DNA of 64,000 nucleotides from an uncultured Alphaproteobacteria bacterium (GCA_963791925.1 CAWBUA010000003.1:296604-360603); one strand, 5' to 3'; shown: positions 17,423 to 52,952, counted from the first letter of the stretch. Numbers and translations are program-made. Notes: a model not told the origin generated them from the sequence alone.

Positions 17423-17496
17423 TGGCTGGGGAACTAGGATTCGAACCTAGATTAACGGAGTCAGAGTCCGCAGTTCTACCGTTGAACTATTCCCCA
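17423..17496 (-). tRNA. tRNA-Gln (anticodon CUG), CCA encoded
   Basis: Reverse complement TGGGGAATAGTTCAACGGTAGAACTGCGGACTCTGACTCCGTTAATCTAGGTTCGAATCCTAGTTCCCCAGCCA folds as a cloverleaf. Acceptor TGGGGAA/TTCCCCA, D stem GTTC/GAAC, anticodon stem GCGGA/TCCGT with loop CTCTGAC, T stem CTAGG/CCTAG with TTCGAAT loop. Confidence 0.9.
17460..17496. repeat. Left copy (attL-like) of a 37-nt direct repeat, equal to nt 1-37 of tRNA-Gln
   Basis: gtcagagtccgcAgttctaccgttgaactattcccca matches 52916-52952 at 36 of 37 positions. Confidence 0.85.
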
Positions 17497-20859: not shown

Positions 20860-20870
20860 GGGCGCATGCG

Positions 20871-30377: not shown

Positions 30378-30382
30378 AAACT

Positions 30383-30596: not shown

Positions 30597-31454
30597 CTAA
30601 ATCACCTCCTTCTTCAGTTGCAGGTTGGGATGCCCGACACGCTCCCATACGTCGTCAAGGAGAGAGAGGAGCGGTTCGGGATGTTTCTCGAACGAGCCGA
30701 GCGAAGGGATCGCCCGGTAGAGCAAGTGGTAGGACTTGGGCTGGGATGTGCCGTTCTGCTCGGCGATGGTGAAGAATAATTTCTTGATGTTTTCCAGGTG
30801 AGGCCTGCTGGTCGTCACTGTGAGGATGAAAGGCTGAGGGATGCCCCATAGCTTTTCTGTCGTCTTATTGAAGATGATGTCGCGGTAGCAAAGCAGTTTG
30901 CGGAGATAGGAATTGAGTTCGAGATTGTGGATGAGCAGATTTTCGGTATTGCGGTCGGCTTCGAGAAGAAAGTGGGCGTCGCCAATTGCGAAAACGGCAT
31001 CCGGCTCGATGGGTTTGCTGGCCTTCTGCGTGCCCCATTCGATGTAGCACGGTATCTTCAGCGGCTTCTGACCGAGCACCTCACGATTGGAGCGAAAGGA
31101 CAGACCATTCATTTTTGCGATGGTCTCGAAGGATAGGAGTATGTCGGAGACCATGAGCTGGTGCCAAAATTGCCGGCTGCCGGTCCAGCTGTTCAGTTCG
31201 ATGCCGTGTTGCTCCAACGCCGCGCGGCTTTTGTGCGTCAGTTCATATACGCGGGGCGCGTAGCGCGCGTTCCAACTCTGCTTTTGCTGGTCGGGCCGGC
31301 CGAGATAGCCGCATTTATAAAGTGTGCCCAAGCGGCGATGGACGTTCTGTTTGGAGCCGCCGACGAGCCGATGCAAGAAATTCGCGCGGCCATAGCGAAC
31401 GCGGTTGAGCGCTTTAAAAACGTCTATGTCGCGTGGAGTGATTTGCAACGTCAT
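30597..31454 (-). CDS. Replication-relaxation (Replic_Relax) family-like protein
   Basis: N-terminal winged-helix-like ITPRDIDVFKALNRVRYGRANFLHRLVGG...RRLGTLYKCGYLGR and a later IEPDAVFAIGDAHFLLEADRNTE block (PDa...E.DrgTE pattern). The ORF extends to 31490. Confidence 0.6.
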   Translation of the reverse strand: MTLQITPRDIDVFKALNRVRYGRANFLHRLVGGSKQNVHRRLGTLYKCGYLGRPDQQKQSWNARYAPRVYELTHKSRAALEQHGIELNSWTGSRQFWHQLMVSDILLSFETIAKMNGLSFRSNREVLGQKPLKIPCYIEWGTQKASKPIEPDAVFAIGDAHFLLEADRNTENLLIHNLELNSYLRKLLCYRDIIFNKTTEKLWGIPQPFILTVTTSRPHLENIKKLFFTIAEQNGTSQPKSYHLLYRAIPSLGSFEKHPEPLLSLLDDVWERVGHPNLQLKKEVI

Positions 31455-31557
31455 ACATGAGAGATAAATCCGGCGTCCGGCTTGGGTCAAAGGCGGCTAT
31501 GGCAAGCCGCGGCGTTCGGCGGGCAACGGTGGGCGGCAGTGAGCGCCACAAATAATT

Positions 31558-33867
31558 TTACCATTCTTCGCGGGACTGCTTCTTGTGTTTTGAGGTGTTG
31601 AGTTCGGCGGGCCCGGTTTGCGGAGCGTCAGAGGTTCGGCGATAGAGTATGTGGATGACGCTGCCCCGGGTGCCATCGGTTCGAAACGTGCCATAGTTGG
31701 GAAATCGGATTCGGTAACCCTCGCGCATATTGGCGGGGATCGAAACCTTCAGAGTCTTCCATTCGGTGCCATGTACATTGACCCGTACTTTGGCTGAGTA
31801 GAATCCCCCCTTATCCGCGACATTAGGATTGATATAATTTTCCTCGTACAGCTCGTCGGTCGGAATATCGCGCTTTGCATACCGTGCGCGCATGGTGAGC
31901 ATGAGCGTGTGATACTCGTAGTCACCGATGAGCGGGTATTGCAGCGTATCAGCAAACGTCTGCGTGTCGTCATTGAGCTTGTGGTGGGGAACTGGGAGCA
32001 GCTCCGCGGTTTTGGTTTTAAATTTCACAAACGCGGCAAAGTGCCCCTGGTCAATCGTAGCCAACACATCGGACGGGGTGTTAGGGAAGTAAGCGGAAGC
32101 CATGGGGTCTCCGGTGGTATTGAACAGCTTTATTGCACAGGTATTGAGCGAGGCGCGCACTTTTTCGTCGTCGATTTGTTTTAAAAACTGATGGGCGAAG
32201 GTGAGCGAGATGCGCTTGGATCGGAGTTGGGTAATCATATCGTCGATGTGCCTATCATTGGCGATGACGTAGTGAGCTTCATCGAGGAAGACATAGACTG
32301 GCTTCTTGCCTTTGCGCTGACGGCCGGCATACCAGATGAGTGCAAGAAAAAGGCGCCCAAGAAATTCAGAGCCAAAGGGACTTAAAAGGGTATAGCTATT
32401 GTTGATGCAGATGACTTTGCCGCTATCGAGCAAGTCCGCCATATTGATCCGCGTGTCCTTGCTGGAGAGAATGGGGCCGAGCCATTTGTTGTTTAAAATG
32501 ATACGTAACCGGGCCTGAATCTCCGCGCGGCGTTCGGCATAGCGTGGCCCGTTGAACTCTTTTTCAAAAAAGCGCTGATCTCGCGGGGGTAGCTGAGTGA
32601 TTTCTTTTTGATAAGCCTTCGCGCCGTCAACCACGATGTCCCAAAAGGTCTCCATCGTAGGCTTGGGTACTTTTTCCAGCAGATTGATGATTTGCGTGAA
32701 TGGAATGGATTGATGGGCGGTCAGGCCGGTATTGAAGACCCCAAACAGGTAGTCGAGAAATTCCGATGGGTGGCCAGTGGCGAACGGATTGATGGCGAGA
32801 GGATAGTCGGGCGTCGTTTCCAAAATGATCAGGCGGTCTTTGATGGCCGCGAGACGATGAAATGAGCTGAATAAATCACCTTTCGAATCAAGAATGATGA
32901 TAGTGGCGTCCTGCTCCAGGCGGTTGAGTATGAGGTGACGCAAAAGATTGGTTTTGCCGGCGCCGGATGCGGCCACAATCCAGCACGCCTCGAACCAGCG
33001 GTCCTCGGGGATATCGAAGGGGATGTCTACGGATTGATTAGAAATCTTGTGCCGGTGTGGGAAATAGGGAGAATAGAAAAAAGAGATTTCCCAGGCCTTG
33101 GTGTCCTGACGCACCTGCTTGTGCTGCTTGGCGTGGCGCTCTTTCCGTACTTTCCACAAGGACAAGTCTAGTTGCTGAAAGTCCTGCTTTCGGGTCCGTT
33201 CCCCGGCTTCGTGCCGACGCTTGCGGTCGCGCCAATCGGCCTTGTCCCATTTGTCATCTACGGGTTCGGATTCGGTGAAATAATCCGGATAAAAGATTGG
33301 CTCGGGCTCATCGAATTCGTCCCAGCAAGGGGGAAGGAATAAATTGCGGTGGGGGAAAATGCCGTGTTTGGCGAGCTGTTCGCAGGCCTCGGCAATCGGG
33401 GCGTTGAGGGCGTTTGGGATTTCGGCAAAGTCAGGAGCAAAATCGTCGGCGGCGAGAAGCGCGCGGGTGACTGAGAACAACGGCGAAGAGCGAACGTTTA
33501 GTGCTGTTCGTGCATGGGCCGGAAATCCCTTGGTGCACTCAACGAGGCTTTTAAGGAACGTTCTGAGAAATGTCTTATACGTTTCGGTTGGGTCTACGAG
33601 TTTGAGTAAATGTCGCTGCTGGTCGGTATCTGGCAAGTCGGCGGGAAACTCATCAGCATAAATATCCCCGATGGTTTCGATGAGCTTAGCAAGAAACTGT
33701 TTAGGCAGTATCAGATAGTCATACAACGGCGCTGCCTCCTGGAGATAAAGGTCCAAGAGACTTTCTTGAAGCCGCCGACGGGAATACGGCGCAAGGGCCG
33801 TACGCCATAGAGCACGGTTAAGCTCCAGTTCATAGACTTTGCGGCGTGCGGGATCGAGTACAGTCAT
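31558..33867 (-). CDS. FtsK/HerA/VirD4-superfamily P-loop ATPase (coupling-protein-like), 769 aa
   Basis: Walker A AASGAGKTN, Walker B PVYVFLDEAHYV, and downstream LTFAHQFLKQI. The C-terminal roughly 90 aa is a beta-rich extension (KVSIPANMREGYRIRFPNYG). Confidence 0.7.
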   Translation of the reverse strand: MTVLDPARRKVYELELNRALWRTALAPYSRRRLQESLLDLYLQEAAPLYDYLILPKQFLAKLIETIGDIYADEFPADLPDTDQQRHLLKLVDPTETYKTFLRTFLKSLVECTKGFPAHARTALNVRSSPLFSVTRALLAADDFAPDFAEIPNALNAPIAEACEQLAKHGIFPHRNLFLPPCWDEFDEPEPIFYPDYFTESEPVDDKWDKADWRDRKRRHEAGERTRKQDFQQLDLSLWKVRKERHAKQHKQVRQDTKAWEISFFYSPYFPHRHKISNQSVDIPFDIPEDRWFEACWIVAASGAGKTNLLRHLILNRLEQDATIIILDSKGDLFSSFHRLAAIKDRLIILETTPDYPLAINPFATGHPSEFLDYLFGVFNTGLTAHQSIPFTQIINLLEKVPKPTMETFWDIVVDGAKAYQKEITQLPPRDQRFFEKEFNGPRYAERRAEIQARLRIILNNKWLGPILSSKDTRINMADLLDSGKVICINNSYTLLSPFGSEFLGRLFLALIWYAGRQRKGKKPVYVFLDEAHYVIANDRHIDDMITQLRSKRISLTFAHQFLKQIDDEKVRASLNTCAIKLFNTTGDPMASAYFPNTPSDVLATIDQGHFAAFVKFKTKTAELLPVPHHKLNDDTQTFADTLQYPLIGDYEYHTLMLTMRARYAKRDIPTDELYEENYINPNVADKGGFYSAKVRVNVHGTEWKTLKVSIPANMREGYRIRFPNYGTFRTDGTRGSVIHILYRRTSDAPQTGPAELNTSKHKKQSREEW

Positions 33868-40530: not shown

Positions 40531-42030
40531 TCACATAGCTTTCGCAGAGAGTTCTAACAGCTTGGCGCGCTGGGCCGGATTGGTGACGTGCTTCGCAACG
40601 AGGTTCGTGACTTCGTTCAAGGCGACCGCAGCCGCGCCGCGTTTCGGGCTCACTTTAGTGAGCTTCACCTTGAGCTTGTCGAGGCTCGATTCCAATTGAG
40701 TGCGAAGAGCGGCCGTGGCCACATGTTTAGTCTTAGTCCTTGCTCGCAACACCGCGGATTTAAATCGCGAAAGCTCCGCTCGATCGAACGGTCGCTTTTG
40801 CTTGAGGCGGGTGCTCGTCTCGGTGATGACATTTCTCACTACCTGCTCGGAGTTGCGGGAAACTGAGGCGGATCGGCAGCGCTGGGTTATTTTCCCGGCG
40901 AGGGGGCCGAGCTGGACGAGTAGATTGTAATAGTGGTGATTTACCTCGAAATTGTCTCTGCGGGCATTGGGGACAATGCGGGGGTCGCAGATATGGATTT
41001 CCCCGATGCTCCAACCGTTAAATCGCGGCTCTTTGAAAATTTCGTCGAAAAGCCCTGCGTCGCCGACCTGTAGATCGCCGACGCGGGCTCTCAAGCCGCG
41101 TACCCCGAGAGCTGGCAGGATGCTACGGACATATTCGTGGTGAGCTATCCACGCGATGGCGCCTGTATCTCCGTCGACGTTGGCAAACTCTAGGAATTCG
41201 ATGTTCCCGATGCGCAGCTTATGTGCCGTTGCCGGGAAGATCATCTCATTTCGGAGGGGTCGGAACACTCGATCTCCCGCAACGACAAGATTGAGTGGCG
41301 TCCTGTTTACTTTGGAAGCCAAACCTTCTTCAATCTGGGCTCCGAAGCTGAATTCTGGAGAGAATGGCAGAGGAGCTACCTGGGAAAGGTAGTGCGCTAT
41401 GACGCGTTCATTCAGCAGGAGATCGTTTCGTAGACGCGCGATTTCTTTAAGGCGAACCTCAAAAAAATGATCGTCGGAATCATTTGCCGTTTCGTGAGAT
41501 ACCGACACAGTGTCGGCAATTATCCGACGAACGTCCCCTCCAAATGCAGCGTCGGTAAGCCGCTCGCGCAAGCCTCGACAATCCCACGAAACTGAAACGA
41601 TCTTTTTCTCTCCGGGCGCCTTGGTTCTGAATTCAAGTTCGCGGCAGTGTGCGAGTCCGGACAGACGACCAACTCCCCGAAATCCCCTAGCTTGCGAACC
41701 GCGCTTCGGCGACCCCCCAATCGCAACCAAAGTGGAGACGGCGTCCTGGGCTTTGATGCCGGCGCCGTTGTCTCGGATGGAAACGCTCCGGCCGCCCTGG
41801 TCAAAAGTAATTTCGACTCGCCCGTGCTCTCTGGGCGTGAGTACCCCTTTTTTTTTGGCTTGATCGATGGAATCAGCGGAATTCTGGATGTACTCCCGAT
41901 AGATCGTAGTGGGGGAGACATACATTCCCGATGTAACAATCTCTATAACGTCTTTTCCGACCCGGATGTCATCTATGTCGATCTGCTCGCGGGGGGGCAC
42001 GCGATTATGTAAGACGCTCGATTCCATCAC
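40531..42030 (-). CDS. GHKL-superfamily ATPase (HATPase_c_3 / MORC-like)
   Basis: N box EYIQNSADS, G1 box IRDNGAGI, G2 box ARGFRGVGRLSG. ATG at 42027 shares one nucleotide with the radical-SAM stop codon (TGATG). Confidence 0.8.
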   Translation of the reverse strand: MMESSVLHNRVPPREQIDIDDIRVGKDVIEIVTSGMYVSPTTIYREYIQNSADSIDQAKKKGVLTPREHGRVEITFDQGGRSVSIRDNGAGIKAQDAVSTLVAIGGSPKRGSQARGFRGVGRLSGLAHCRELEFRTKAPGEKKIVSVSWDCRGLRERLTDAAFGGDVRRIIADTVSVSHETANDSDDHFFEVRLKEIARLRNDLLLNERVIAHYLSQVAPLPFSPEFSFGAQIEEGLASKVNRTPLNLVVAGDRVFRPLRNEMIFPATAHKLRIGNIEFLEFANVDGDTGAIAWIAHHEYVRSILPALGVRGLRARVGDLQVGDAGLFDEIFKEPRFNGWSIGEIHICDPRIVPNARRDNFEVNHHYYNLLVQLGPLAGKITQRCRSASVSRNSEQVVRNVITETSTRLKQKRPFDRAELSRFKSAVLRARTKTKHVATAALRTQLESSLDKLKVKLTKVSPKRGAAAVALNEVTNLVAKHVTNPAQRAKLLELSAKAM

Positions 42031-43685
42031 GCTGCCTTCCTCTTATTTTTACGCTTGGATGGTATTTGAAGCGAAACAATATCGTCCTCAAGGCCTGCAT
42101 CCTCGACGATTTCTTCCTCAGTCATATTGATTTGCGCGGTCGTTTGTTGTGCAAGCCGCTCCCGTTGTATTTGCCGAATGCGGCTCTCAACTTCGCGGGT
42201 CAGCGGAAAATAGAAGCGCGCGACTTGCTGCATGTTAGGCGGCAGATCGCGGATGTCCCGCGTATACTCCGCTGGGTTTCTTCCGGACAAAAATGCGACA
42301 AGCTCAGTGTGTTCGGCCTGCGACAGTCGGCCGAGCTGTGCGCGGTATTCATCCAGCTCGCCCCGGCCCTCATAGCGCTCGTAGTATTGGCGATTGAAGA
42401 TCATATGGTGAGGTCGTGCCAGTATGCCTTCAAATTCATCGTGTGTGGCTCCAAACGCCGCTTTGAAGAACTCGGGCTCTCCGGAGACAACTCCGTGTGT
42501 CGCCTGAAGGACAAGCTGTACCGATCGGAGGAAGTATCTATTCCACTTCGGTCCGATATGTGACCGAACCGGCAAGTCGGTCGGCTGATACCGCATCGGG
42601 AACGAGTAAATGCGGATGGCCAGTTCCTCGTTGAGCCTCACGTTCAAATACATGCGCTCGAAGAGGTCTGCCGGTGTGTCGTGAAAATTATAAAGCATAT
42701 AGTTCGAGAGGTCGTTTAATCCGAACTCATGGGCATATCGAACTGCGGTTTCATAAGGGCCTTTGAGCCCAAGGTGGTCGAACGCGATGCGCAGCGGACT
42801 GAGACAGATTGAGGACAGCTCGCGCAAGTACATTCTGTCCTTGCACAGAATCCGAGCGTCCACTCCCTGATTAAAGTCCACGCGACGCAGAGCCCCGACG
42901 CGCTCTCCTTCGCGTTTGAGTTTGGCTCCGCGGATAAATCCAAGATCGCGGATTTCGGCGATGATTTCCTTGAAGCGCGCGGAAGCGACGACGTTGTTGT
43001 CCATCAACATGAGGTCGCGGCGCGGGCCGTACATGCGGTCAACGCCCTGGACGAATTCAGTGAGCGGGGTTGCGTCGCGCTGTGCTCCTTCCAGTTTGGG
43101 TACGCCGCAGAAGTGACACTTGCGAATACAGCCGCGCGACGCATACGCGAAATACGCGTCTCTGACGGGATACTTGTAGTCTATCTGATCAAGAATGCTG
43201 TAATCCGGGATAAGGTCTTCGATGGGAGAGCTGGTCACGTCGTCCGCATAAAAGTCGCCGTCGAAGGCGTCGAGCTGAAGCGATTTGGCCGGCGGGCCGT
43301 CTAGGAGGCCGCGGATAAAGCGGACGCCCCGCCACCGCGATTCTTGAAGGAACCGGTCATGCATGAGCGAGGCGGCGATGCCGCCCACGAATACGCGCTG
43401 CGACTGCCCGTGCACGGCATCGATGGCAAAATCGATCGTTTCAGCGATGGACTGATACTCGAATGAGAAGAGGGTCGTGATGTATATCCGGTCCCACGGG
43501 TGATTCGTGAGCCGGGGGTGCGTGCCCTTTGCGAAGGTGACGTGGTCGCGCTTGCCGGCTGGCCCGTGATACTGGGCAATTTTCATCAATCCCAGAGGCG
43601 GGTACTTGTTCTTATAGCCCGGCTCCAGCAGCAGAATTCGCTTATTTGGCATGGACTTCGACCCTAGCTTCGCCGCATCATACAT
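42027..43685 (-). CDS. Radical SAM protein with N-terminal Rossmann/B12-binding-like domain
   Basis: CIRKCHFC, i.e. CxxxCxxC at Cys186/190/193 (43107-43130). The N-terminal KRILLLEPGYKNKYPPLGLMKIAQY resembles class-B radical-SAM N-domains. Alternative start MPNKR at 43652. Confidence 0.8.
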   Translation of the reverse strand: MYDAAKLGSKSMPNKRILLLEPGYKNKYPPLGLMKIAQYHGPAGKRDHVTFAKGTHPRLTNHPWDRIYITTLFSFEYQSIAETIDFAIDAVHGQSQRVFVGGIAASLMHDRFLQESRWRGVRFIRGLLDGPPAKSLQLDAFDGDFYADDVTSSPIEDLIPDYSILDQIDYKYPVRDAYFAYASRGCIRKCHFCGVPKLEGAQRDATPLTEFVQGVDRMYGPRRDLMLMDNNVVASARFKEIIAEIRDLGFIRGAKLKREGERVGALRRVDFNQGVDARILCKDRMYLRELSSICLSPLRIAFDHLGLKGPYETAVRYAHEFGLNDLSNYMLYNFHDTPADLFERMYLNVRLNEELAIRIYSFPMRYQPTDLPVRSHIGPKWNRYFLRSVQLVLQATHGVVSGEPEFFKAAFGATHDEFEGILARPHHMIFNRQYYERYEGRGELDEYRAQLGRLSQAEHTELVAFLSGRNPAEYTRDIRDLPPNMQQVARFYFPLTREVESRIRQIQRERLAQQTTAQINMTEEEIVEDAGLEDDIVSLQIPSKRKNKRKAA

Positions 43686-43795
43686 CGGCCGAGATGGAAA
43701 CGCGATCGGGAAATTGACCGAAGTTGTATTTTTCTGGGGGCGGATAAGGAAAGGGGCCGTAATGAGTTGGCCACCAGCTGAGGGGGCTGGGAAGC

Positions 43796-45208
43796 ATGGG
43801 ACGAAGAAAACGGCCTAGATTTCGAAAAAAAGAGGCCCCCGGGCGAGCTGTACCAAAGGGCCAAACATTGACCGGGCTAATATCCGGCGATGCTTTGAAG
43901 CCTGTCTACGCTGTGAAAGCCAAAGCGGTCGACGAAAAGACAGTCTCCGCTTCAAGGCCGGAAGCTCTAGCTGCCAAAATCGAGGCTGAGAAGGCTGATG
44001 GGTGGCACGTTCTTCGTAACAGTGCAAAATCGGCTCGCCTCGCCAAAGACAAGCCCATCGACCGCCAACTTGAAGATGACGTCTGGTCACTTTTATATCG
44101 AATGGGCTTCAAGGAACTGAACTTTGATCGCAATTTTTCCGTCAAAATCAACGATGGAACGGCAGAGCGGCAGCTCGACGTGTTCGCGAAAGACGACGAG
44201 ACTGTGTTCATCGTGGAATGCACTCACGCGCGGGAAGTCGGCACAAAATCCGTCAAGACTCTTCTAGAGAAAATCGCTGCAATCCGTCCGGAGGTCATTC
44301 AGGCGATTCAAAAGCACTATGGACGTGAAAGCAAGCTCAAGATCAAATTTACAATTGCGACTCGCAATATCGAATGGCGCGGCGCAGATAGAACTTTGGC
44401 TGAGAGCTCCGGCGTACCAATCATAACTGAAGAAGACCTAACGTACTTCAGTCGTCTGACCAGCATACTAAAGCACGCGGCTCGCTTTCAATTCCTCGGT
44501 CGATACTTTGAGGGGGAGAAGGTGGAAGGGCTGAGATCGAAGGTGCCCGCGACGCAAGGGCGCATCGGTAATAAGACTTTCTATAACTTCCTCATCTCGC
44601 CACACGATCTGCTGCGCATTTCTTACATCAGTCACATGGCCAAGGCTTCCAACGACGATCTGGAAACGTACCAACGGATGGTGAAGCCTTCTCGATTGGC
44701 CGCGATTGGTCAATATATCGACGACGGTGGCACCTTTCCAACAAACATTGTCATAAATTTAAAACGAGAAAATCTTCATTTCGATGTCAAAGAAAAATTC
44801 GGCGACACGGCGACCGGGATTCTTAGCCTGCCAGGACTGTATGGGTCAGCGTGGATCGTCGATGGGCAACATCGGCTTTATGGCTATGCCTACGCAACTC
44901 GCAAAGTCGAGGAAGACCGCTCGGTCGTCCCCGTACTAGCTTATGAGAACTTGCCCGTCCGCGAAGAAATTGAGCTCTTCGTGGACATCAATACTAAGCA
45001 AGTAAAAGTGAGTCGAAATCTAGTCAACGAAATTGTTTCCAGTCTGAATGTCGATGATCCAGATGCGAGAAAGCGCCTCGACGCGATGTGCGCACGTGTC
45101 GCACTTCGGCTCGACTCGCATTCGACGTCACCTCTAAAAGATCGAAGTCTTAACGGTGGCCCAGGAGAAGAATCATACCCGCTGTTTGACTCTGACTTCG
45201 CTCGCTGA
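43796..45208 (+). CDS. DGQHR-domain (DndB/ParB-like) protein with N-terminal nuclease-fold-like region, 5' segment truncated by a frameshift
   Basis: WIVDGQHRLYGYAYA (44861-44875), YQRMVKPSRLAAIGQYI, FPTNIVINL. The N-terminal QLDVFAKDDETVFIVECTHA resembles a degenerate PD-(D/E)xK core. The ORF ends in junk after ...STSPLK. Confidence 0.8.
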   Translation: MGRRKRPRFRKKEAPGRAVPKGQTLTGLISGDALKPVYAVKAKAVDEKTVSASRPEALAAKIEAEKADGWHVLRNSAKSARLAKDKPIDRQLEDDVWSLLYRMGFKELNFDRNFSVKINDGTAERQLDVFAKDDETVFIVECTHAREVGTKSVKTLLEKIAAIRPEVIQAIQKHYGRESKLKIKFTIATRNIEWRGADRTLAESSGVPIITEEDLTYFSRLTSILKHAARFQFLGRYFEGEKVEGLRSKVPATQGRIGNKTFYNFLISPHDLLRISYISHMAKASNDDLETYQRMVKPSRLAAIGQYIDDGGTFPTNIVINLKRENLHFDVKEKFGDTATGILSLPGLYGSAWIVDGQHRLYGYAYATRKVEEDRSVVPVLAYENLPVREEIELFVDINTKQVKVSRNLVNEIVSSLNVDDPDARKRLDAMCARVALRLDSHSTSPLKDRSLNGGPGEESYPLFDSDFAR

Positions 45209-46202
45209 TGGCATAGCGGAGAACAATCTTATTGGTTCTCTCTATAGGGCGCAAAAAGGCGGTGTGACGATGCTAGTTGCTGGCCCGCTCAGCGACCCAT
45301 CGGTCGATTCTAAGCTGAGCATGGACAAGGCGGTTGAAACGCTTTCGCGGTACTATGCGCTTTTTGCGAAAGGCCTCGAAAGCCATTGGGCACTCGGAGA
45401 TGATAAAGGCGGATTTCTCGCCACCAACCTCGGTCTTCGCGCCATCACGCAATTGCTTCGGCGCCTAATAGCATTTGTCGAACGGAAGGAAGAGGTGAGC
45501 GCATCGACGCTCGACCCTGAAGATATTGTCGATCGCATTAAGCCTTATGTTGATCCCGTGATTGAATTTTTCCAAACAGCAAATGCAAGTGACATTGCTA
45601 AGTTTCGCAATCGTGGCAGTTCATTACAAAGCGTTGATCAAAACTGCATGCAAATGATGGCGATCATTCACGGCGTAAAAGGGGATACCTTCGATTTAGT
45701 CGAGGTGCGGGATTGGATTCAAAGTCAAGATGCGCAGGGTACCAAGCAAGCTGGGGATATGATTGATGAGATCAACCGAATTATTTTTGCCGATGTTATC
45801 GATAGACTTAAGACAAAGTTTGGCAGCAATGAAAAGGAATGGTGGGTCCAAGGTGTGCCGGCAAAGGTACGCAACGACTGCGACAAGCAGTACAATGAAT
45901 TAAACGGCGAACATGAGAGATGGCAATTTCTTTATCTAATAAGTTATGTTGATATCGTTCTATATAATGATAATTGGGATTTGTTCAAAGAGTACTACGA
46001 CTTCTATGGCGGGGGCAAAAAGGCCGACCGTGTGCGTTGGATCGTGAAACTTAACAAGGCTCGGCAGGTAACGCATCACGCAGAGAAGGGGCCTCTTTCC
46101 AAGGATCAGGTTGAATTCGTACGACGTGTGCACGCCTTGGTCAAAGAGCACATCGAGCAGCGTAATAAGGTGACGCCAAAGCACTGCTACCTTCCGGAAT
46201 GA
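45156..46202 (+). CDS. 3' segment of the same DGQHR gene, a helical region ending in a Swt1-like HEPN-type domain
   Basis: The frame is open from 45138 (KIEVLTVAQEKNHTRCLTLTSLADGI). The C-terminus WWVQGVPAKVRNDCDKQYN...NWDLFKEYY...KLNKARQVTHHAEKG (R-x4-H at 46062-46079) parallels the HEPN end of the 47994..49118 protein. Confidence 0.7.
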   Translation: MAQEKNHTRCLTLTSLADGIAENNLIGSLYRAQKGGVTMLVAGPLSDPSVDSKLSMDKAVETLSRYYALFAKGLESHWALGDDKGGFLATNLGLRAITQLLRRLIAFVERKEEVSASTLDPEDIVDRIKPYVDPVIEFFQTANASDIAKFRNRGSSLQSVDQNCMQMMAIIHGVKGDTFDLVEVRDWIQSQDAQGTKQAGDMIDEINRIIFADVIDRLKTKFGSNEKEWWVQGVPAKVRNDCDKQYNELNGEHERWQFLYLISYVDIVLYNDNWDLFKEYYDFYGGGKKADRVRWIVKLNKARQVTHHAEKGPLSKDQVEFVRRVHALVKEHIEQRNKVTPKHCYLPE

Positions 46203-46228
46203 TCGAGTAGGCGCCGAATCAGCAAGAA

Positions 46229-46536
46229 ATGACCTGGACCGATCCACAAACGTTGTCTGCTATAGCCGCCGCCTCGGCAGCGGGGGCCGCTTTTACCGTC
46301 GCAGGCATCCAGCTGTATATAGGGCACCGACAATCGAAAGCGGCGCTGCGGTCGGCTGATGCCGCCCTGATGAGTGCGCAAAACGCTGGCCGTCATAGGG
46401 TGGCGGAGTTTCGGCAGGAATGGATAAACAAGGTGATCGATATACTTTCAGAACATCATGGCATTGTCTCGTCTATTCCGGCGGAACAAATGGCTGGTCC
46501 TGATGACGAACGGAGGCTCGCGGGCCTAAGAACTAA
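46229..46536 (+). pseudogene. Small membrane-anchored protein gene, 5' part, split by the IS630-family element
   Basis: N-terminal TM helix LSAIAAASAAGAAFTVAGIQLYI. Removing 46537-47715 joins ...RRLAGLRT to KLAILLNPNEPDTV... (47716-47893) in frame, giving 161 aa. Confidence 0.65.
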
Positions 46537-46549
46537 TACCAACTCCACA

Positions 46550-47107
46550 TCAGAGTGAGTTGGCGATATATGGAAAGGATGTGATGGAGCGGACGAGTTT
46601 GCGGTTGTGCTCGATGTAGAGGATGGCCTGTTTGAGTTTAGCGCGCACGGCGTCGATGGATTTCAGCGCGTAATTCTTGAAGATTTTCTCGCGGATTTCA
46701 TCCCAGAGATTTTCCTTTGGATTAAGTTCGGGCGAATACGGTGGAAGGTACAAGAGCTTGATATTGTCGGGAAGGGTCAGTTGGCCACAGCGATGGTTGG
46801 GCGCGCCGTCGAGAACCAAAAGGATGTCCTGGCGGGCGAACCTGCGCGCCAGCACGTCGAGGAAGGCCTGAAAGCAGGCGGTGTTCGACGTCGGCATGAT
46901 CAGATAGACGCAAACTCCGTCTTTTGGAGAGACTGCGCCGTACAAATAGATGTATTCGCGAATGAGCTGAGCGGCGACCGCTGGTCTCGTTCCGATCGGC
47001 GCCCAGCATGGCCGTGGCCGATTAATGCGGCCGAAGCGCGCTTCATCGGCGAACATGATGCGCAGATGCCGACCGCGCCTCTTGGCCGCCCGCCGAGCCT
47101 GCCTCAC
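46550..47107 (-). CDS. IS630-family transposase, DDE-domain part (orfB)
   Basis: FADEARFG, LVLDGAPNHRC and YLPPYSPELNPKENLWDEIR form the typical DD(34)E region. The frame is open upstream to 47128, inside the A7 run. Confidence 0.85.
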   Translation of the reverse strand: MRQARRAAKRRGRHLRIMFADEARFGRINRPRPCWAPIGTRPAVAAQLIREYIYLYGAVSPKDGVCVYLIMPTSNTACFQAFLDVLARRFARQDILLVLDGAPNHRCGQLTLPDNIKLLYLPPYSPELNPKENLWDEIREKIFKNYALKSIDAVRAKLKQAILYIEHNRKLVRSITSFPYIANSL

Positions 47108-47595
47108 TGCATCAGGAAAGCCGTTTTTTTAAAAGCTTTTTGCGCCGCGAGGTCGCGCTTGGGATGAAACGGCCGCGGCATCAGCTTGCGCCAGCCCTGC
47201 CGGTGCAAGAGATTGTACACCGTGCTGTCGCTGGTCACATGCCCGATCGCCTGTTCATAGGCCGCTTTGAGATCGTGAATGTTCAACATCTCGCCGGCGC
47301 CGGCAGCTTTGGCAAAGCGCGCCAGCAAGGCCTTTTCCGTCGCCACGGTCATGTTCTCGTGCTTGCGTCCGCCATTCGGCTTGGGCTTAAGCGCCTTGAT
47401 GCCACCGTGAGCATAGGCCATGTGCGCGCGGTTCACCGTGCTCAGCGATACACCCATCGCTGCCGCAATCGCGCCCTGCGTCATCCCGCTCTCGCGTAAC
47501 AGCACCATTTGAATGCGCTGGCGCTGTCCGGCCGTGATCTTCCATCGTAGCGCGGTTTTGAGCCGCCGAACCTCGGCTTTGCTGCATTCGACCAT
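47104..47595 (-). CDS. IS630-family transposase, HTH part (orfA)
   Basis: RQRIQMVLLRESGMTQGAIAAAMGVSLSTVNR (HTH) and VYNLLHRQGWRKL. ATG at 47595 lies inside the element. orfB is in the -1 frame. Confidence 0.8.
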   Translation of the reverse strand: MVECSKAEVRRLKTALRWKITAGQRQRIQMVLLRESGMTQGAIAAAMGVSLSTVNRAHMAYAHGGIKALKPKPNGGRKHENMTVATEKALLARFAKAAGAGEMLNIHDLKAAYEQAIGHVTSDSTVYNLLHRQGWRKLMPRPFHPKRDLAAQKAFKKTAFLMQ

Positions 47596-47715
47596 CTGTT
47601 TTCCCCGAATCAGATAGCCAAGCGAATCACACTCAGCGCCTCGAAAACAATTCCCCTGCCTTCCGCTCTCAGCGCAGAAGACTGCCCGATTCAATCCGTT
47701 ATGGAGCTGGTATAA

Positions 47716-47893
47716 GTTGGCAATTTTGTTAAATCCCAATGAGCCCGATACTGTAACCCTTCTCGGTGTGATCGAAAAGCTAGATCAGAGCCGCACTGAT
47801 CAGACGTTCACGGCGGCTGAAGCGGAAATGCTGACCGTGGCGCGCGCTTTGCTCAAGCGAGAATGGGTTCGCATTAAAGAAGAGCTTAAGTGA
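47716..47893 (+). pseudogene. 3' part of the IS630-split gene
   Basis: KLAILLNPNEPDTVTLLGVIEKLDQSRTDQTFTAAEAEMLTVARALLKREWVRIKEELK-stop, in frame with 46229-46536 after IS removal. Confidence 0.6.
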
Positions 47894-47993: not shown

Positions 47994-49118
47994 CTACGTC
48001 GCTTCGAGGGTCTTGCTGAGTACTCGTTCAAACCACATAATTCCGGCCTCGCCCTCTGTCCGCACAATATCATCGACGAACCGGCTATGACGAAGGGCAT
48101 TTCGCAATGCGGCTATTTGTCCGAATTTGATAGTGAGGGCCTCCTGAGTGCCGAAGCGGTCGACGAACCTCGGCCAAAGCATTTTGTTTATGAGCGCCAT
48201 CTCAAGTTCACGGAGATCACAAAATTCGAGCTTGTTGGGTAGGGATTTGTAGCGCGCGGGGTCAAAGGCGGCATTGCGCTTCATCTCATCAGCTATTCGC
48301 CGTTGAGCCCGTTCGTTGATTTCGGATGGTAGTTGTTTTGGATCGCTTCCGATTGTCGAGGTAATAAGGATGCGCAGTTGCAGTTCTATGGCCTCAAGCC
48401 TGGCGTCGAGCGCCTTGATCTTGGATCGCGAAGAAAATAGTTCATCAGCGCGCTCAAACCTGTCTATGGCATTGGTAGTCTCGGTGGGACGAAGGACATA
48501 CAGGGGGCAATGCTGTTCGTTCTGTTCGGGCAACAGAATCATCGTGAACCCGCAGCGCTTAAGTATTGCCTCGCCGTCGCGAGATTGTGCGAAGGCGGTA
48601 TACGTGCGCTGCTCCAGCGGCTCGTAATGCTTACGAAGAAATTCCTTCATTTTGAGAAGAAGCACTTCACCCGCAACTAGCGAGCTAAACCGCCTTTGGT
48701 GTGGGTTCCTGAGGATGGTCGCAATGTGGAGGTACGTTGCAGACGAAGTGCCAGCCGCCGGCACAATGTGATCGAGTGTGAGTGACCGTTCGCTAATCGC
48801 TCCCGAAATGACGCCCACGCCGGCAGTGGCCGTAAGTGGAAAAATATCGAAAAAGCCTATTAGTTGATTGTTTTCATCAACGACCGATGTGAACACTAAC
48901 GAGTTTTGCCTCCGCCATTCTTTATAGTCCGCGTATGTAATGGCGTGCTTGTCTAGTTCGCGACGCACAATGTTATTGGCAGTTGAGGCGATGGACTCGT
49001 CATCCCGCGAACCAAAATGAACAACTTCCAACGCACCGTCAATCGCGAAAAGCAAAGAACCGTCAGCGTAATCGGTACGCTTCCTCTGATATATTCGTCT
49101 AAAGAGGTTCGTAAACAT
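47994..49118 (-). CDS. GNAT-like N-terminal domain fused to a Swt1-like HEPN domain
   Basis: The C-terminus LPSEINERAQRRI...LEFCDLRELEMALINKMLWPRFVDRF...GQIAALRNALRHS contains the R-N-x3-H HEPN motif (48087-48104). The N-terminal half ends in the GNAT-like ...AFAQSRDGEAILKRCGFTMI. Confidence 0.65.
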   Translation of the reverse strand: MFTNLFRRIYQRKRTDYADGSLLFAIDGALEVVHFGSRDDESIASTANNIVRRELDKHAITYADYKEWRRQNSLVFTSVVDENNQLIGFFDIFPLTATAGVGVISGAISERSLTLDHIVPAAGTSSATYLHIATILRNPHQRRFSSLVAGEVLLLKMKEFLRKHYEPLEQRTYTAFAQSRDGEAILKRCGFTMILLPEQNEQHCPLYVLRPTETTNAIDRFERADELFSSRSKIKALDARLEAIELQLRILITSTIGSDPKQLPSEINERAQRRIADEMKRNAAFDPARYKSLPNKLEFCDLRELEMALINKMLWPRFVDRFGTQEALTIKFGQIAALRNALRHSRFVDDIVRTEGEAGIMWFERVLSKTLEAT

Positions 49119-49140
49119 TCAGACGTGCTCGTGGCCTACA

Positions 49141-49656
49141 TTAGTGAAGAGTGCGGACCATATATTGGGCGGTGTCGCCGTATGAACGCAGCTTCTCAGT
49201 CAGGTCCACCCGCTGGACGATCTCGAAGCCGCATTTCATCCAGAGGGGATGGGTGTTGTATACCGAGACCAAAGCGAGCGCAGGAATGAGGCATTCTCGT
49301 GCAGCGTCGGCAACAATCTCTATAAACCGCTGAGCAGCACCGTGTCCTCTCGCAGAAGGCATGACGACTACGTCATGTATGAAAATGCAGTCCGGCTGAG
49401 AGGGCAGTTCCTTTAGATAGGTATCCAGTGGGGGAATCTTATTGAGATGCCAGGGATGAGAAATTCCGTAGCCGACGGTCTCGCCGGAATAGGTCAGGAC
49501 CCGACAGCCCGAGGGGAATAGACCGAGCTTCTCCGCAAAGACTTCGGGCCGCTCCGGCAGGCTAGTATGTATACCATTCCCAATGGCATCTATTGCCTTC
49601 AAATCCTCGGTAGTCGCCTGGCGCCATTGGGGGGTGGTCTGATCATTCATAGACAA
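49141..49656 (-). CDS. GNAT-family N-acetyltransferase
   Basis: IHDVVVMPSARGHGAAQRFIEIV (motif A Q/RxxGxG/A) and NTHPLWMKCGFEIV. Lies 22 nt upstream of the GNAT-HEPN gene. Confidence 0.8.
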   Translation of the reverse strand: MSMNDQTTPQWRQATTEDLKAIDAIGNGIHTSLPERPEVFAEKLGLFPSGCRVLTYSGETVGYGISHPWHLNKIPPLDTYLKELPSQPDCIFIHDVVVMPSARGHGAAQRFIEIVADAARECLIPALALVSVYNTHPLWMKCGFEIVQRVDLTEKLRSYGDTAQYMVRTLH

Positions 49657-49766: not shown

Positions 49767-51594
49767 ATGACTTCCCACACCGAGAATATATTATCCAGCC
49801 AAGGGGGTGGGAGGCACAGCATGGCGATCACCGATCAAGCTATCGATCAGGTCTTTTCCGATTTGAAAAGGACTTGCGGCGGAGTACGCAATGACTACTT
49901 CGCTCTTTTGTATTTGATGCAGGAGTTTGGCTTAGAGCGCGACCTGGCGATTTAGCAAGTGGCGTTCGGGGGGAATGATTATGGCATTGATGGTTTTCAT
50001 TTCGACGCTTTGAAACGAAACTTCTATCTCTTTCAGTTCAAATATTCCACGTCATATGAACAATTCAAGCCGTCATTCAAACGACTGGCGGACTTTGGTA
50101 TGGAGCGAATTTTTGGGGCGCGCACCCAGGACCAACATCAGAACCAGTTGTTACTTCAAATAAAAAGTTGTCTTCTCGAAAATGAAGCAATTATAGACCG
50201 GGTATATATTCACTTTGTCTTTACAGGGGACCCGGCGGAGGCTGAGCGTAGCCAGGTGCTCGATAAGCTGCGCGAGAATCTGGAAGATAAAAAATATCTC
50301 ATAGACCAGCGTTTCGACCGCCCCGTGACGCTGGTGATCGAGTTTCGTTCCGCCCGAACCCGAAAGGTCGGAGCGGCCACCCATTTACGTAAGACGCATA
50401 GCTACCCGATTGAACTCGACAAAACAATAACCCGCGCTGGTCCGAATGGTGAGACAATGACGGTGGGCTTCATCCGAACTCGTTGATCTCAATGCTATGT
50501 ATAGAGAAATGGGAGCGCGCTTCTTTGAGCGCAATATTCGCGCTGCGCTAGCAGAGGATAAAGCTGTCAATCGATCTATCCAGCAGTCGTTCAAAGCTAT
50601 TGTCTTGGAAGGCAAGGAGGAAGCCAGTATCTTCGCATTCAATCATAACGGTGTTACTTTGTTCGCGGAAGACCTGCACCAAGTGAATGGCTCATTTAAT
50701 AAAATTACAGAACCGCGTGTTTTGAATGGCGCGCAGACGGTTACGACGTTTGCACGATTTATGAAGGCCAATGAGGGAAATAGCAGATTAGCAGAGCGTA
50801 AAGACGCCTTAAACGATCTTAGTGTGATGTGCCGCATCATCACAAATGCCGTGCCGGAATTTGTCACCACCGTCACAATTAATAACAACCGTCAAAATCC
50901 GGTTGACCCTTGGAACCTCCACGCGAATGATATGATTTAACTGGAACTACAAGATAAATTTCGGGACGAGCTTGGCATCTATTATGAACGTCAGGAGAAG
51001 GCATTTGAAAATTTGAGCGATGAGGAGCTTTGGGAGCAACAAATCACCGAGCATCGTGCGCTGGAATTAACGCGGGTTGCGCGAACATTCCTCGTAAGTG
51101 ATGGCGACATCGATAAACTTGCACGATTTAGGGAAGTATTTGAGGACGACCGGATTTACAGCCAGGTGTTTAGTGACAATAGGCTGAGAGCAGATTTGAG
51201 AAAGATTGTCCTTTGCTACAAGGTGCAGTTCAGACTGGGGCGCCTGAGTTACGACATTGTAGATAAGGGAGCCAACAAATATGCCTACGTTCTTCGCTCG
51301 CGCAATTTGCTGTGGGCCTTACTCTGTCAGGCAATTCTTAACGACCCAAAGCTGGAAGAGCGCGCTGAGAAGTTCGGCAAGGGCCTCAGCTTAGAGGCAC
51401 AGTACACAGAGTACCTTTCGGGCTTAGCCACAACACGCTGCCGCTTCGTTCTTGCGGACCTTGTTGCGGACAAAACGTATGCTGGAAAGAGTGCGGAAGG
51501 AAATTTCAGCTTTATGCGGACTAACGCAGCGTACAAGAGGGCGATGGAAATCGCCTATAAGCGCTGGCACTGGGTGGAAAAGCGTTTGAGGTAA
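49767..51594 (+). pseudogene. AIPR-family abortive-infection gene, decayed (two in-frame stops and one frameshift)
   Basis: Four consecutive ORFs read as one AIPR-like protein: GGNDYGIDGFHF...LFQFKYS and later FNHNGVTLFAEDL...VLNGAQTVTTF. TAG at 49953-49955 and TAA at 50938-50940 are in frame. There is a +1 shift near 50474-50476. Confidence 0.75.
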
Positions 51595-51635: not shown

Positions 51636-52772
51636 TCATGCCGCTCGGGCGGTGTCAGGTACGTCTTCGGCGGCAGGGAGCTTCGAAAGATAATTCTCCC
51701 ATTTTTCAATGGCCGCCCGCATCTCTGGCAAATAGGTATAAACGTCGTACGTGCGCTCCATATCTGTTCGGGCTGAGATGTGATTGACGAGCCGCTCGGC
51801 TATGTGGGGTGCTACGCCCAACTTGCCGAGGTTGGTGCGGAAGGTCCGGCGAATGTCGTGCAGCGTCCAGCTGGTGACACCGCTTATTCGATCGAGCGTG
51901 GCCTTGGCTTTGCCCCAGCCGCAGAATGGCTTGTTGGGCTTATTCCTGGCGGGGAACAGAAGTCCTATATCGGCTTGCGCCGCGAGTATCTCTTTCGCCC
52001 GTGCGCTGATTGGAAGGGTATGCGCCTGCTTGTTTTTGGTGATCTCGCCGGGGAGCGTAATGGCGTCAGTCCCGATCCAGGCCCGGTTGAGCGCGGCGGT
52101 TTCCGTTTCGCGCTGACCTAGGAGAATCAGCAATCGGACCATCGTTTGAAAATGTCGCGGGAGTTTCTCGGAGTTGCACGCGTCCCAAATCTTTTTCAAT
52201 TCAACATCGGTCAGAATGCGGGACCGGCGTTTGCGCTCATAGGCTGATATGCCAACTACAGGATTGTCGGTGATGTAGCGGCGCCCCATGCACCAATTGA
52301 AAAAAATAATGGCAACGGTGCGGGCATGATTATGCTCGGCCGGCACGTCTTTCAATCTTTGGAGCCGGTGCGCGATCTGCGCGTGAGTTACATCCCTCAA
52401 CTGACCCTTGAAGGAGAAATGTCGTTTGAGGTGTCGCGTGTAGTCGGCGAGGGTGCGCGGTCTGGCGCTCTTGGCTTTCTCCGCGAGGAAAAGCTGCACC
52501 GCCTCGGAATAGGGGAGGGACTGCGGACGCAGCCGGCCAAGGGTGAATTCGGCGAGCAGCCGTTTTGCTTCAGCGCGCGCTTCCTGGAGCGAAATGACGG
52601 GGTATCGGCCTAAGGAAATAAAGCGACGGTCCGACCCAACCTGCAAAAAGAAGGTGCGTGTATCGCCCTGAGATACACGGACTCCAAATCCATGCAGGGT
52701 GTCATCGCAGAGTTTGATCTGACCCTTGGCAGGCACAGGTGTCGCTCGGATCGCAACGTCGGTGAGACGCAT
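51636..52772 (-). CDS. P4-type tyrosine integrase (DUF4102 arm-binding N-domain plus catalytic domain)
   Basis: N-terminus MRLTDVAIRATPVPAKGQIKLCDDTLHGFGVRVSQGDTRTFFLQ is typical of P4-like integrases. C-terminus HDIRRTFRTNLGKLG...LVNH...YDVYTY carries the catalytic residues. Lies 143 nt from the tRNA-derived repeat. Confidence 0.9.
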   Translation of the reverse strand: MRLTDVAIRATPVPAKGQIKLCDDTLHGFGVRVSQGDTRTFFLQVGSDRRFISLGRYPVISLQEARAEAKRLLAEFTLGRLRPQSLPYSEAVQLFLAEKAKSARPRTLADYTRHLKRHFSFKGQLRDVTHAQIAHRLQRLKDVPAEHNHARTVAIIFFNWCMGRRYITDNPVVGISAYERKRRSRILTDVELKKIWDACNSEKLPRHFQTMVRLLILLGQRETETAALNRAWIGTDAITLPGEITKNKQAHTLPISARAKEILAAQADIGLLFPARNKPNKPFCGWGKAKATLDRISGVTSWTLHDIRRTFRTNLGKLGVAPHIAERLVNHISARTDMERTYDVYTYLPEMRAAIEKWENYLSKLPAAEDVPDTARAA

Positions 52773-52774: not shown

Positions 52775-52792
52775 TAGCCTCGCTATAGCCTC
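52775..52792. repeat. 18-nt direct repeat TAGCCTCGCTATAGCCTC (right copy)
   Basis: Identical to 17540-17557. Starts 3 nt upstream of the integrase start codon. Confidence 0.6.
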
Positions 52793-52915: not shown

Positions 52916-52952
52916 GTCAGAGTCCGCTGTTCTACCGTTGAACTATTCCCCA
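52916..52952 (-). repeat. Right copy (attR-like) of the 37-nt repeat, a tRNA-Gln 5'-half fragment
   Basis: gtcagagtccgcTgttctaccgttgaactattcccca. The only difference from the intact gene is at tRNA position 25 (unpaired). No 3' half follows. Confidence 0.85.

Follow-up and report, generated by a model that had tools for sequence, protein, structure and literature searches.

A widespread radical-SAM/GHKL/DGQHR gene set as a probable, so far unnamed modular conflict system with a candidate DNA-marking role

A 64,000-nt stretch of DNA from an uncultured Alphaproteobacteria bacterium (GCA_963791925.1 CAWBUA010000003.1:296604-360603; this whole stretch is called the window below) contains a gene for a radical S-adenosylmethionine (radical-SAM) enzyme that overlaps a gene for a GHKL ATPase and diverges from a gene for a long protein with a DGQHR (DndB/ParB-fold) domain. 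The comparative analysis described here shows this radical-SAM/GHKL/DGQHR set to be widespread, and we interpret it as a probable modular conflict system that has no name so far. We are highly confident that these components form a functionally linked module and consider a defense or conflict role of this module probable, while marking of DNA by the module is a tentative proposal that we rate below even odds. The reading that we favor, a modification-dependent DNA-marking defense similar to Dnd, Ssp and Dpd in which the radical-SAM enzyme would be the writer, is given a probability of about 45%.

The evidence for linkage comes from a GTDB survey in which the radical-SAM gene was found in 262 species spanning Alphaproteobacteria, Acidobacteriota, Gemmatimonadota, Gammaproteobacteria, Binatia and Verrucomicrobiota; 80 species loci were fetched, and partner genes were counted over 78 of them within 10 kb. 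The radical-SAM gene is followed on the same strand by the GHKL gene in 78 of the 80 loci, the other two being cut by a contig end, and the same pairing is observed in relatives at 42–49% identity and on 24 of 46 viral or mobile genetic element contigs. With more than 6,600 relatives at E ≤0.001 among 90%-identity clusters, the best 120 of which are all at least 73% identical, this is a large family; a deeper search among 1.84 billion representatives yielded 1,563 clusters at E ≤0.001 and 269 at 1e-30 or better, and its known carriers include cultured strains of Rhizobium, Bradyrhizobium, Mesorhizobium, Sphingomonas and Sphingopyxis as well as 46 IMG/VR contigs.

Clustering of all open reading frames (ORFs) flanking the radical-SAM/GHKL pair revealed several recurrent partner modules, at least one of which is present in 75 of the 78 loci. 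A short DGQHR gene is found in 43 loci, directly upstream and in the same operon in 34, and its product (~345 aa) matches Pfam DndB and, in PADLOC, DpdB (7e-17). The long form, which combines a restriction endonuclease (REase)-like region, a DGQHR domain and a HEPN-like domain, occurs in 17 loci with varying position and orientation. In the four-gene SNF2 cassette (35 loci), genes for two ParB-like proteins enclose those for a 137-aa protein bearing a PD...EAK motif and for an SNF2 helicase whose PADLOC matches to DpdE/ZorD reach 1e-35 to 1e-40 (DpdE 4.5e-35). In another module, present in 36 of 78 loci (e.g., L061 13287-16746), PIN_8 (~620 aa) is accompanied by a second GHKL protein paralogous to the core one; in seven loci the paralogous GHKL instead occurs together with C8, a protein of ~300 aa. 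The partner modules were matched in PADLOC by generic SNF2 models and a weak PDC-M38A hit only. The long DGQHR form is the sole partner set of the window locus, and neither the SNF2 cassette nor the PIN/GHKL pair was found in the window.

This association persists among distant relatives. At 42% radical-SAM identity (P0127, four contigs) a GHKL gene comes after the enzyme gene, and next to it, in convergent orientation, a gene for a 771-aa protein with a DndB domain; at 49% (P0130) it is preceded by the ParB/small/SNF2/ParB cassette and followed by GHKL, and a third radical-SAM subfamily shows the reversed order, GHKL and then radical SAM. The three-gene form (radical-SAM, GHKL and long DGQHR) is present in L007, L008, L053, L059, L081-84 (at 42% radical-SAM identity) and many metagenome contigs, and L096 and L102 have the divergent layout of the window, in which the long DGQHR gene adjoins the pair. 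A reciprocal metagenome scan with the long DGQHR alignment placed relatives of at least 40% identity next to a radical-SAM/GHKL pair in 19 loci; the exceptions at this level are mostly short contigs, with one locus (L087) having long flanks and the SNF2 cassette instead of the pair, and relatives at ~30% identity are mostly without the pair. In one natural fusion protein, P0214 (L213 1019-3394), a short-DGQHR-like region whose DGQHR motif is degenerate is joined to the radical-SAM enzyme itself (BLASTP 1e-19 over 271 aa, HMM 101 bits), its neighbors being an Eco57I-type IIG enzyme, a resolvase, SLATT and ThsB-TIR.

Comparison of pairwise-identity matrices further revealed co-divergence with the radical-SAM enzyme, with Mantel r values of 0.84 for GHKL, 0.83 for long DGQHR, 0.58 for short DGQHR, 0.40 for SNF2 and 0.36 for PIN. 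The enzyme is the most conserved component of the system (mean identity of 0.68–0.72 vs. 0.44 for GHKL and 0.25 for PIN), and such conservation next to diverse partners is expected of a conserved writer with diversifying effectors.

A first-pass annotation of the window had grouped the radical-SAM, GHKL and DGQHR-fusion genes with a gene for a small membrane protein. The trio stands as a conserved linked set, across the 80 loci and down to 42% identity; the short stand-alone DGQHR gene at the head of the usual operon and at least three further partner modules had been missed. The membrane protein is not a conserved member of this set: since a tblastn relative of the 161-aa protein was detected in just one of the 80 loci (L003), where it is not adjacent, it was not counted as a member and was rejected as an effector, and its gene is probably outside the system. 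Nor does it match C9, a multi-pass membrane protein of ~220 aa encoded directly downstream of GHKL in L064 (13202-13876), L067, L074, L078, L085 and L100.

The ORF map of the window places the genes where the first-pass annotation had put them, as follows.

40531..42027, minus strand: GHKL ATPase gene, Hsp90-like, 498 aa; the public gene call starts at the same ATG
42025..42029, minus strand: TGATG stop/start overlap of the radical-SAM and GHKL genes (TGA 42029-42027, ATG 42027-42025), with GGAAGG just upstream
42027..43652, minus strand: radical-SAM enzyme gene, 541 aa when counted from Met12; the full ORF of 552 aa reaches 43685
43107-43130: CxxxCxxC motif (CIRKCHFC) of the radical-SAM gene, residues 186-193 of the 552-aa ORF
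43653..43795: intergenic region of 143 bp from which the radical-SAM/GHKL operon and the long DGQHR gene diverge
43796..45208, plus strand: long DGQHR gene, 5' ORF, with the REase-like and DGQHR/ParB-fold domains
45138..45160, plus strand: +1 frameshift in the long DGQHR gene (frame 2 to frame 3 in tblastn of intact homologues)
45156..46202, plus strand: long DGQHR gene, 3' ORF, with a helical region and the C-terminal HEPN-like domain
46229..46535, plus strand: 161-aa gene, 5' part, with one N-terminal hydrophobic helix
46536..47714, minus strand: IS630-like insertion, two overlapping transposase ORFs, TA on both sides
47715..47893, plus strand: 161-aa gene, 3' part, downstream of the IS630-like element

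The likely true start of the radical-SAM gene, at Met12 (43652), is common to all of its homologues and to the public gene call, so the divergent intergenic region measures 143 bp and not the 110 bp (43686-43795) given earlier, the divergent layout as such being correct; the promoters of both transcription units are presumably located within it. The bases of the previously noted TGATG overlap and CxxxCxxC motif (Cys186/190/193) are as described, and the overlap together with the upstream GGAAGG suggests translational coupling of the radical-SAM and GHKL genes. The copy is decayed, as had been proposed, by a frameshift in the DGQHR gene and an insertion sequence in the membrane-protein gene. 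Long DGQHR homologues in 17 other genomes are single ORFs of 707–856 aa as opposed to the two ORFs of the window, in which intact homologues switch reading frame, and the 161-aa frame is restored once 46536-47714 is removed. This element, with imperfect terminal inverted repeats at 46531-46558 and 47691-47718, was tentatively assigned to the IS630 family by its ORF layout, size and TA target. Split DGQHR genes beside intact radical-SAM genes are also observed elsewhere, with unusual frequency, mostly for the long form (L079, L089, L095, L101, L141 and L143, in addition to the window) and for the short form in L020.

The radical-SAM enzyme (541-aa numbering) is composed of a B12-binding-like Rossmann domain (residues ~5-125), a radical-SAM core (~166-355) and a helical C-terminal domain (~372-502), and ends in a basic tail (KRKNKRKAA). 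C186, C190 and C193 (numbered in the 552-aa ORF) do not vary among 19 close or 40 diverse homologues, and no other cysteine is conserved among the 40 sequences. An auxiliary cluster like that of MiaB is thereby excluded, so that the Rossmann domain is either of B12 type or cofactor-less. Structure prediction by AlphaFold2 reached a pLDDT of 56.5 with a shallow alignment of close homologues and 89.8 with a 40-sequence alignment including distant representatives; the latter model combines a Rossmann domain, a radical-SAM barrel and an all-helical C-terminal domain. In a Foldseek comparison of this model with the PDB the top 15 matches are all radical-SAM enzymes (E 3.5e-10 to 3e-6), the best being cobalamin- and methylthiotransferase-type enzymes: MgmA (top), TsrM, MiaB, MtaB, OxsB, CysS, RimO and TokK. 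Pfam, PADLOC and NCBIfam searches with the protein gave nothing above threshold, and sequence searches of the PDB gave motif-level matches only. Two assignments were considered and rejected: a methylthiotransferase of MiaB/RimO type, given the N-terminal domain without conserved cysteines, the lack of a TRAM domain and the all-helical C-terminal domain, and a viperin, given that there was no PADLOC viperin profile match and no viperin among the listed fold matches.

The GHKL ATPase assignment is confirmed by its three sequence boxes, each invariant in 26 homologues, and by Pfam HATPase_c_3 (35.6 bits vs. the cut-off of 25, E 1.1e-8).

41872-41895, minus strand: N box, EYIQNSAD
41758-41772, minus strand: G1 box, DNGAG
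41668-41685, minus strand: G2 box, GFRGVG

The invariant residues are E45, N49, D52, D86, G88 and G115-L122. The earlier description of this protein as MORC-like had to be abandoned: NCBIfam assigns it to the HSP90 family (3.6e-12), with further matches to HtpG and sacsin-like models, the best PDB match in a profile search is the HtpG N-domain (2.7e-11), and the best 60 PDB matches are all Hsp90-family N-domains with no MORC or MutL entry among them. MORC and paraMORC proteins were accordingly ruled out, no S5 or MORC match being found. The ~350 aa that follow the Bergerat fold matched no known domain.

In the long DGQHR protein of ~800 aa the predicted DGQHR (DndB/ParB-fold) domain was recovered by TIGR03187 (137.8 bits vs. 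the cut-off of 58.85, 5.5e-40) and Pfam DndB (40.7 bits, 2.1e-10). The motif lies at 44861-44875, with DGQHRLYGY invariant in 13 sequences, and the best PADLOC match of the window protein is DpdB (1.1e-16); the DndB-associated equivalog TIGR04172 (74.5 bits vs. 450) and the DpdB equivalog NF041060 (57.2 bits vs. 300) were both failed. As for the degenerate PD-(D/E)xK-like and Swt1-type HEPN regions previously noted at the two ends of this protein, their motifs are conserved and their profile matches are weak. D128, E141-C-T143 and K151 of the REase-like region (44177-44224) are invariant, with Thr in the canonical lysine position, next to a PADLOC match to the Mrr-like region of ZorD at 1.9e-4. 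The R-x4-H motif (RQVTHH, 46062-46079) is kept in 11 of 13 aligned homologues, and the C-terminal domain matches PADLOC PDC-M34B (9.6e-5) and no Pfam HEPN profile. The HEPN and PD-(D/E)xK labels are thus putative, and a PDB profile search with the long DGQHR alignment found nothing. The Swt1-like family of the 2013 HEPN census (PMC3710099) includes a ParB-HEPN fusion, Saro_3948, for which no link to a radical-SAM enzyme was made. This protein is probably a long DGQHR form.

The view that this gene set could not be placed in any named system was borne out by classifier and literature checks. PADLOC-DB v2.0.0, applied to nine proteins encoded at the locus and on either side of it, matched neither the radical-SAM nor the GHKL protein, gave a DpdB-like match only for the DGQHR protein and assigned no system; no dnd (including dndACDE), ssp, dpdA or viperin model matched any of the nine proteins, in agreement with the first-pass annotation, and no gene similar to tRNA-guanine transglycosylase (TGT) was found. 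Searches of Pfam, NCBIfam and the full-text literature (subscription journals being outside their reach) identified no named system with this gene set, and a 2024 reappraisal of Dnd does not mention it. Described anti-phage systems with other radical-SAM components include Ophion (OpnABC), which consists of radical-SAM, PHP and phosphoribosyltransferase proteins and in which the radical-SAM component is essential, and HXS, in which a radical-SAM enzyme is the maturase of a repeat peptide.

In the mechanism that we favor, the invariant core would be the B12-domain-type radical-SAM enzyme translationally coupled to the Hsp90-like GHKL ATPase, and it would work with a DGQHR protein, either the short form, whose gene opens the operon, or, in the case of the window, the long form with its REase-like and HEPN domains. 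The ATP-driven GHKL partner and the ParB-like protein would deliver the radical-SAM enzyme to DNA, where it would write a covalent mark on the host's own DNA; nuclease modules, i.e., the long DGQHR-HEPN protein or, elsewhere, the ParB/REase/SNF2/ParB cassette or the PIN and GHKL pair, would read this mark and attack unmarked incoming DNA or RNA. We infer the DNA substrate, the existence of the mark and the identity of its readers. A DNA-directed role is suggested because the conserved partners are all DNA-handling or nuclease proteins (ParB folds, SNF2 helicase, REase-like, PIN, HEPN), and the radical-SAM enzyme is the candidate writer because it is the sole enzyme of the set able to write a mark as well as its most conserved part. 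A more specific version, in which a cobalamin-type radical-SAM enzyme brought by GHKL and DGQHR installs a hitherto undescribed radical-derived modification on genomic DNA (for example, a C-methyl or other carbon-centered group on base, sugar or backbone) by which at least three interchangeable nuclease modules would recognize self, is possible and, in our estimate, rather doubtful.

Genomic context points in the same direction. Homologous loci adjoin Septu, Gabija, PARIS, MADS, DndH and PD-T7 genes, and PADLOC analysis of 85 sampled neighbors in these loci returned mad8, PD-T7-1, PD-T7-5, DndH, HerA, PtuA, GajA/B and AriA. A distant phage relative (31% identity; L182 5356-12712, on a 66.8-kb viral contig) lies between a gene for a uracil-DNA glycosylase and 3'-5' exonuclease and a gene for a family-A DNA polymerase (PolA), with a sliding clamp, a Dam-type methylase and a clamp loader further out. 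It is the combination of the partners, the operon parallels with known systems, the phage replication context and the defense neighbors that leads us to favor a modification-dependent defense. Broken long-form genes next to an intact writer, in the window and at several other loci, fit a toxic effector; with its effector frameshifted and its writer pair intact, the window copy is probably defense-dead and may still mark DNA. L183 and L205 have a second radical-SAM gene, distinct from the first, downstream of the radical-SAM relative.

Several observations weigh against a DNA-marking defense. Its DNA substrate is deduced from the partners, and the fold neighbors of the predicted radical-SAM model act on proteins, tRNA and small molecules, none of them on DNA. 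No sequence-specificity subunit is evident in the module. Of the features that define the radical-SAM superfamily, the window protein has the CxxxCxxC motif and, in the predicted model, the partial TIM-barrel fold, and it scores below the cut-off of Pfam PF04055 Radical_SAM (16.4 vs. 29.5 bits), which is passed by relatives at ~40% identity (P0127 with 31.0 bits, P0129 with 29.9 bits). Likewise, of the Rossmann/B12-binding-like N-domain of ~180 aa initially proposed, the predicted fold matches TsrM, OxsB, CysS, TokK and MgmA in Foldseek, and the Pfam B12-binding profile gave nothing above threshold for the window protein and a weak match (21.5 vs. 32.1 bits) for the relative P0207. The co-divergence may partly reflect shared host phylogeny, some of the variable, moderately co-inherited partner modules may be independent neighboring systems, and the PADLOC neighbor counts are without a background control. 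Finally, the split DGQHR genes may result from recurrent inactivation of a toxic effector or from assembly errors in metagenome-assembled genomes.

Abortive infection is the foremost alternative, although we consider it unlikely: GHKL and DGQHR proteins would sense infection and the radical-SAM enzyme would be the effector, with no self-marking involved. Its chemistry could be the production of a toxic or chain-terminating nucleotide, as by viperins, or direct radical damage to nucleic acid. The precedents are real, in that viperins are radical-SAM effectors and both Ophion and HXS use radical-SAM components, HEPN and PIN are typical RNase domains of abortive infection, and the apparent lack of a specificity subunit would be no obstacle. 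The fold of the enzyme, however, is of the B12-domain/methylthiotransferase type and not the viperin type, with no viperin model matching it, and no nucleotide kinase or similar partner is conserved next to it. Effectors are, moreover, already supplied by several separate nuclease modules, and a component that is far more conserved than its partners would be unusual for an arms-race effector.

The location of many loci lends itself to another explanation, quite unlikely in our judgment, according to which the module would handle or modify the DNA of the mobile element that carries it (evading restriction, competing with other elements or contributing to maintenance) rather than defend the host. 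Two of the loci (L023, L029) are plasmid-borne, integrase-bounded islands house 13 of 78 loci as well as the window copy, others are on IMG/VR contigs, one element (L085) carries ERF, RadC and DUF932 genes, the distant phage relative sits within a replication module, and ParB-like proteins are common on plasmids. Defense systems ride such elements too, however, and the conserved partners are restriction-type nucleases and helicases, not partition or replication genes, with defense genes as neighbors.

It is improbable that the radical-SAM enzyme serves to mature a protein, either its GHKL partner or another one, with the ATPase being the true functional unit. Such a role would suit the strict, translationally coupled pairing of the two genes, the protein methylase MgmA as the best fold match and the presence of RimO among the matches; yet the paralogous GHKL proteins are paired with PIN or C8 without a radical-SAM partner, and the P0214 fusion ties the enzyme to a DNA-binding fold and not to the ATPase. 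Chance co-location of an independent single-gene DGQHR-HEPN defense beside an unrelated radical-SAM/GHKL pair, to which the pair-less relatives at ~30% identity and the varying position and orientation of the long form might point, is highly improbable, given that the subfamily of at least 40% identity almost always adjoins the pair, that linkage is kept at 42% radical-SAM identity, that the Mantel r is 0.83, and that a short paralogue belongs to the operon and, in P0214, forms one chain with the enzyme.

The window locus is part of a tRNA-integrated island with further defense genes, as originally described; 24-nt tRNA-Gln repeats, an integrase, the restriction-modification pair and a fragmented AIPR gene were all found. 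The principal features of the island are as follows.

17423-17496, minus strand: tRNA-Gln, the 5' end of which is the left island repeat
17473..17496 and 52929-52952: 24-nt direct repeat GTTCTACCGTTGAACTATTCCCCA from the tRNA-Gln 5' end, bounding an island of ~35 kb
27953-29245: Mutator-family transposase
30597-31490: Replic_Relax (relaxase-like) protein
31558-33867: TraG/VirD4-like coupling protein
49141-49656, minus strand: GNAT acetyltransferase, directly upstream of a 374-aa protein (47994-49656 region)
49767-51594, plus strand: AIPR abortive-infection gene, broken into three or four ORFs (Pfam AIPR 2e-16 on 50497-50940)
51636..52772, minus strand: tyrosine-type integrase at the right island end, labeled by homology to the recurrent cluster C7

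GC content is low across 22-53 kb of the window, and homologues of the integrase (cluster C7) are encoded near the system in 13 of 78 loci. The attachment geometry is unusual in that the repeat at the island ends corresponds to the 5' half of tRNA-Gln and not the usual 3' end, and the integrase gene lies beside the partial copy and not the intact tRNA; a tRNA adjoining the integrase was looked for and none was found. A second exact repeat of 18 nt, TAGCCTCGCTATAGCCTC, is located at 17540-17557 (~44 nt from the tRNA-Gln 5' end) and at 52775-52792 (beside the start of the integrase gene); as it is not collinear with the 24-nt repeat, it could be an arm-type site of the integrase. The restriction-modification pair consists of a TdeIII-type REase and an N4/N6 methyltransferase, as identified by profile search. 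Fragmentation of the AIPR gene means that a second defense gene of the island is also decayed. The C-terminus of the 374-aa protein contains an R-x4-H motif (RNALRH, 48087-48104) and matches PADLOC PDC-M34B, the candidate family that was also matched by the HEPN-like domain of the long DGQHR protein, and it may form a separate GNAT/HEPN pair with the acetyltransferase. The genes at 27953-33867 look like remnants of an integrative mobilizable or conjugative element. At 19129-26251 (plus strand), within the repeat-bounded island, a region of host-like GC encodes a two-partner-secretion set (ShlB/POTRA transporter and TPS-domain exoprotein) and a 1061-aa LVIVD/GLUG repeat protein, and the island may be composite. 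Outside the island, 13499-13787 (minus strand) matches Rfam 5_ureB_sRNA with 99.6 bits (gathering threshold 40), within or antisense to a 746-aa ORF (13286-15526) that is presumably a urease subunit gene.

If the proposed DNA-marking mechanism is true, this would be the first defense system with a radical-SAM writer acting on DNA, methylation, phosphorothioation and 7-deazaguanine would be joined by a fourth chemistry for immunity based on modification, and Hsp90-like ATPases would gain a role in DNA transactions. The large size and strong conservation of the family and its presence in cultured strains make this directly testable. Even if the idea of a DNA mark fails, an obligate radical-SAM/GHKL pair with swappable nucleases represents an uncharacterized immune or mobile-element module.

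A side-by-side comparison with known systems reveals partial likenesses to several of them. Viperins, radical-SAM defense effectors that are small and make 3'-deoxy-3',4'-didehydro (ddh) nucleotides, share with Ophion, HXS and the new set a radical-SAM enzyme in an anti-phage setting, whereas GHKL and DGQHR partners and the B12-type N-domain are absent from all three. In paraMORCs and Ymh GHKL-HEPN fusions a GHKL ATPase is similarly encoded with restriction-type nucleases and HEPN domains (PMC3710099). The new ATPase differs in being nearest to the Hsp90/HtpG N-domain and in having HEPN on a separate ParB-fold protein, and a radical-SAM partner has not been described for paraMORCs. With class B radical-SAM enzymes and methylthiotransferases (MgmA, TsrM, TokK, CysS and OxsB; MiaB and RimO) the predicted enzyme shares an N-terminal Rossmann domain and a radical-SAM barrel (Foldseek probability 1.0), while identity is 12–16%, TM-score ~0.4–0.5, and the helical C-domain is unique, with neither a TRAM domain nor auxiliary cysteines; MgmA and RimO have proteins as their substrates, MiaB has tRNA, and TsrM, OxsB, CysS and TokK have small molecules. 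By our reading, the PPLGLMK and VGG motifs of the new enzyme resemble B12-domain motifs.

The closest parallels are with modification-based systems. SspE of the Ssp system is a ParB-fold NTPase-like domain fused to nuclease domains and encoded beside a modification module; the long DGQHR protein likewise unites a ParB fold and nuclease domains in one chain, although these are DUF262 and HNH in SspE and DGQHR, REase-like and HEPN in the long form, and no sspABCD genes are present at the new locus. In Dpd, a DGQHR ATPase (DpdB) helps the modifying enzyme DpdA to act on DNA, which is also the part that we propose for the DGQHR protein of the new set. DpdB is the best PADLOC match of both DGQHR forms (1e-16 and 7e-17), and the cassette SNF2 helicase matches DpdE (4.5e-35); the new set, however, is without a TGT-like DpdA or preQ0 pathway genes, its candidate writer being the radical-SAM enzyme, and its DGQHR protein fails the DpdB equivalog cut-off (57 vs. 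300 bits). From Dnd the new set differs in being without homologues of DndA, DndC, DndD and DndE in the PADLOC scans, in having a true radical-SAM enzyme with a B12-type domain where the Dnd Fe-S enzyme is of the PP-loop type, in having a GHKL instead of an SMC-like ATPase, and in a DGQHR protein that falls below the TIGR04172 equivalog cut-off. DndH-like genes, found among 3 of the 85 sampled neighbors of homologous loci, are the sole Dnd matches there. In overall organization the two are alike: the dndB-dndC-dndD layout corresponds to DGQHR, Fe-S enzyme and ATPase, as in the short-DGQHR operon; a DGQHR/DndB-family gene heads or faces an operon with an Fe-S enzyme and a DNA-associated ATPase; and in both, nuclease/helicase restriction modules are swapped in and out, with defense islands and mobile elements as their home.

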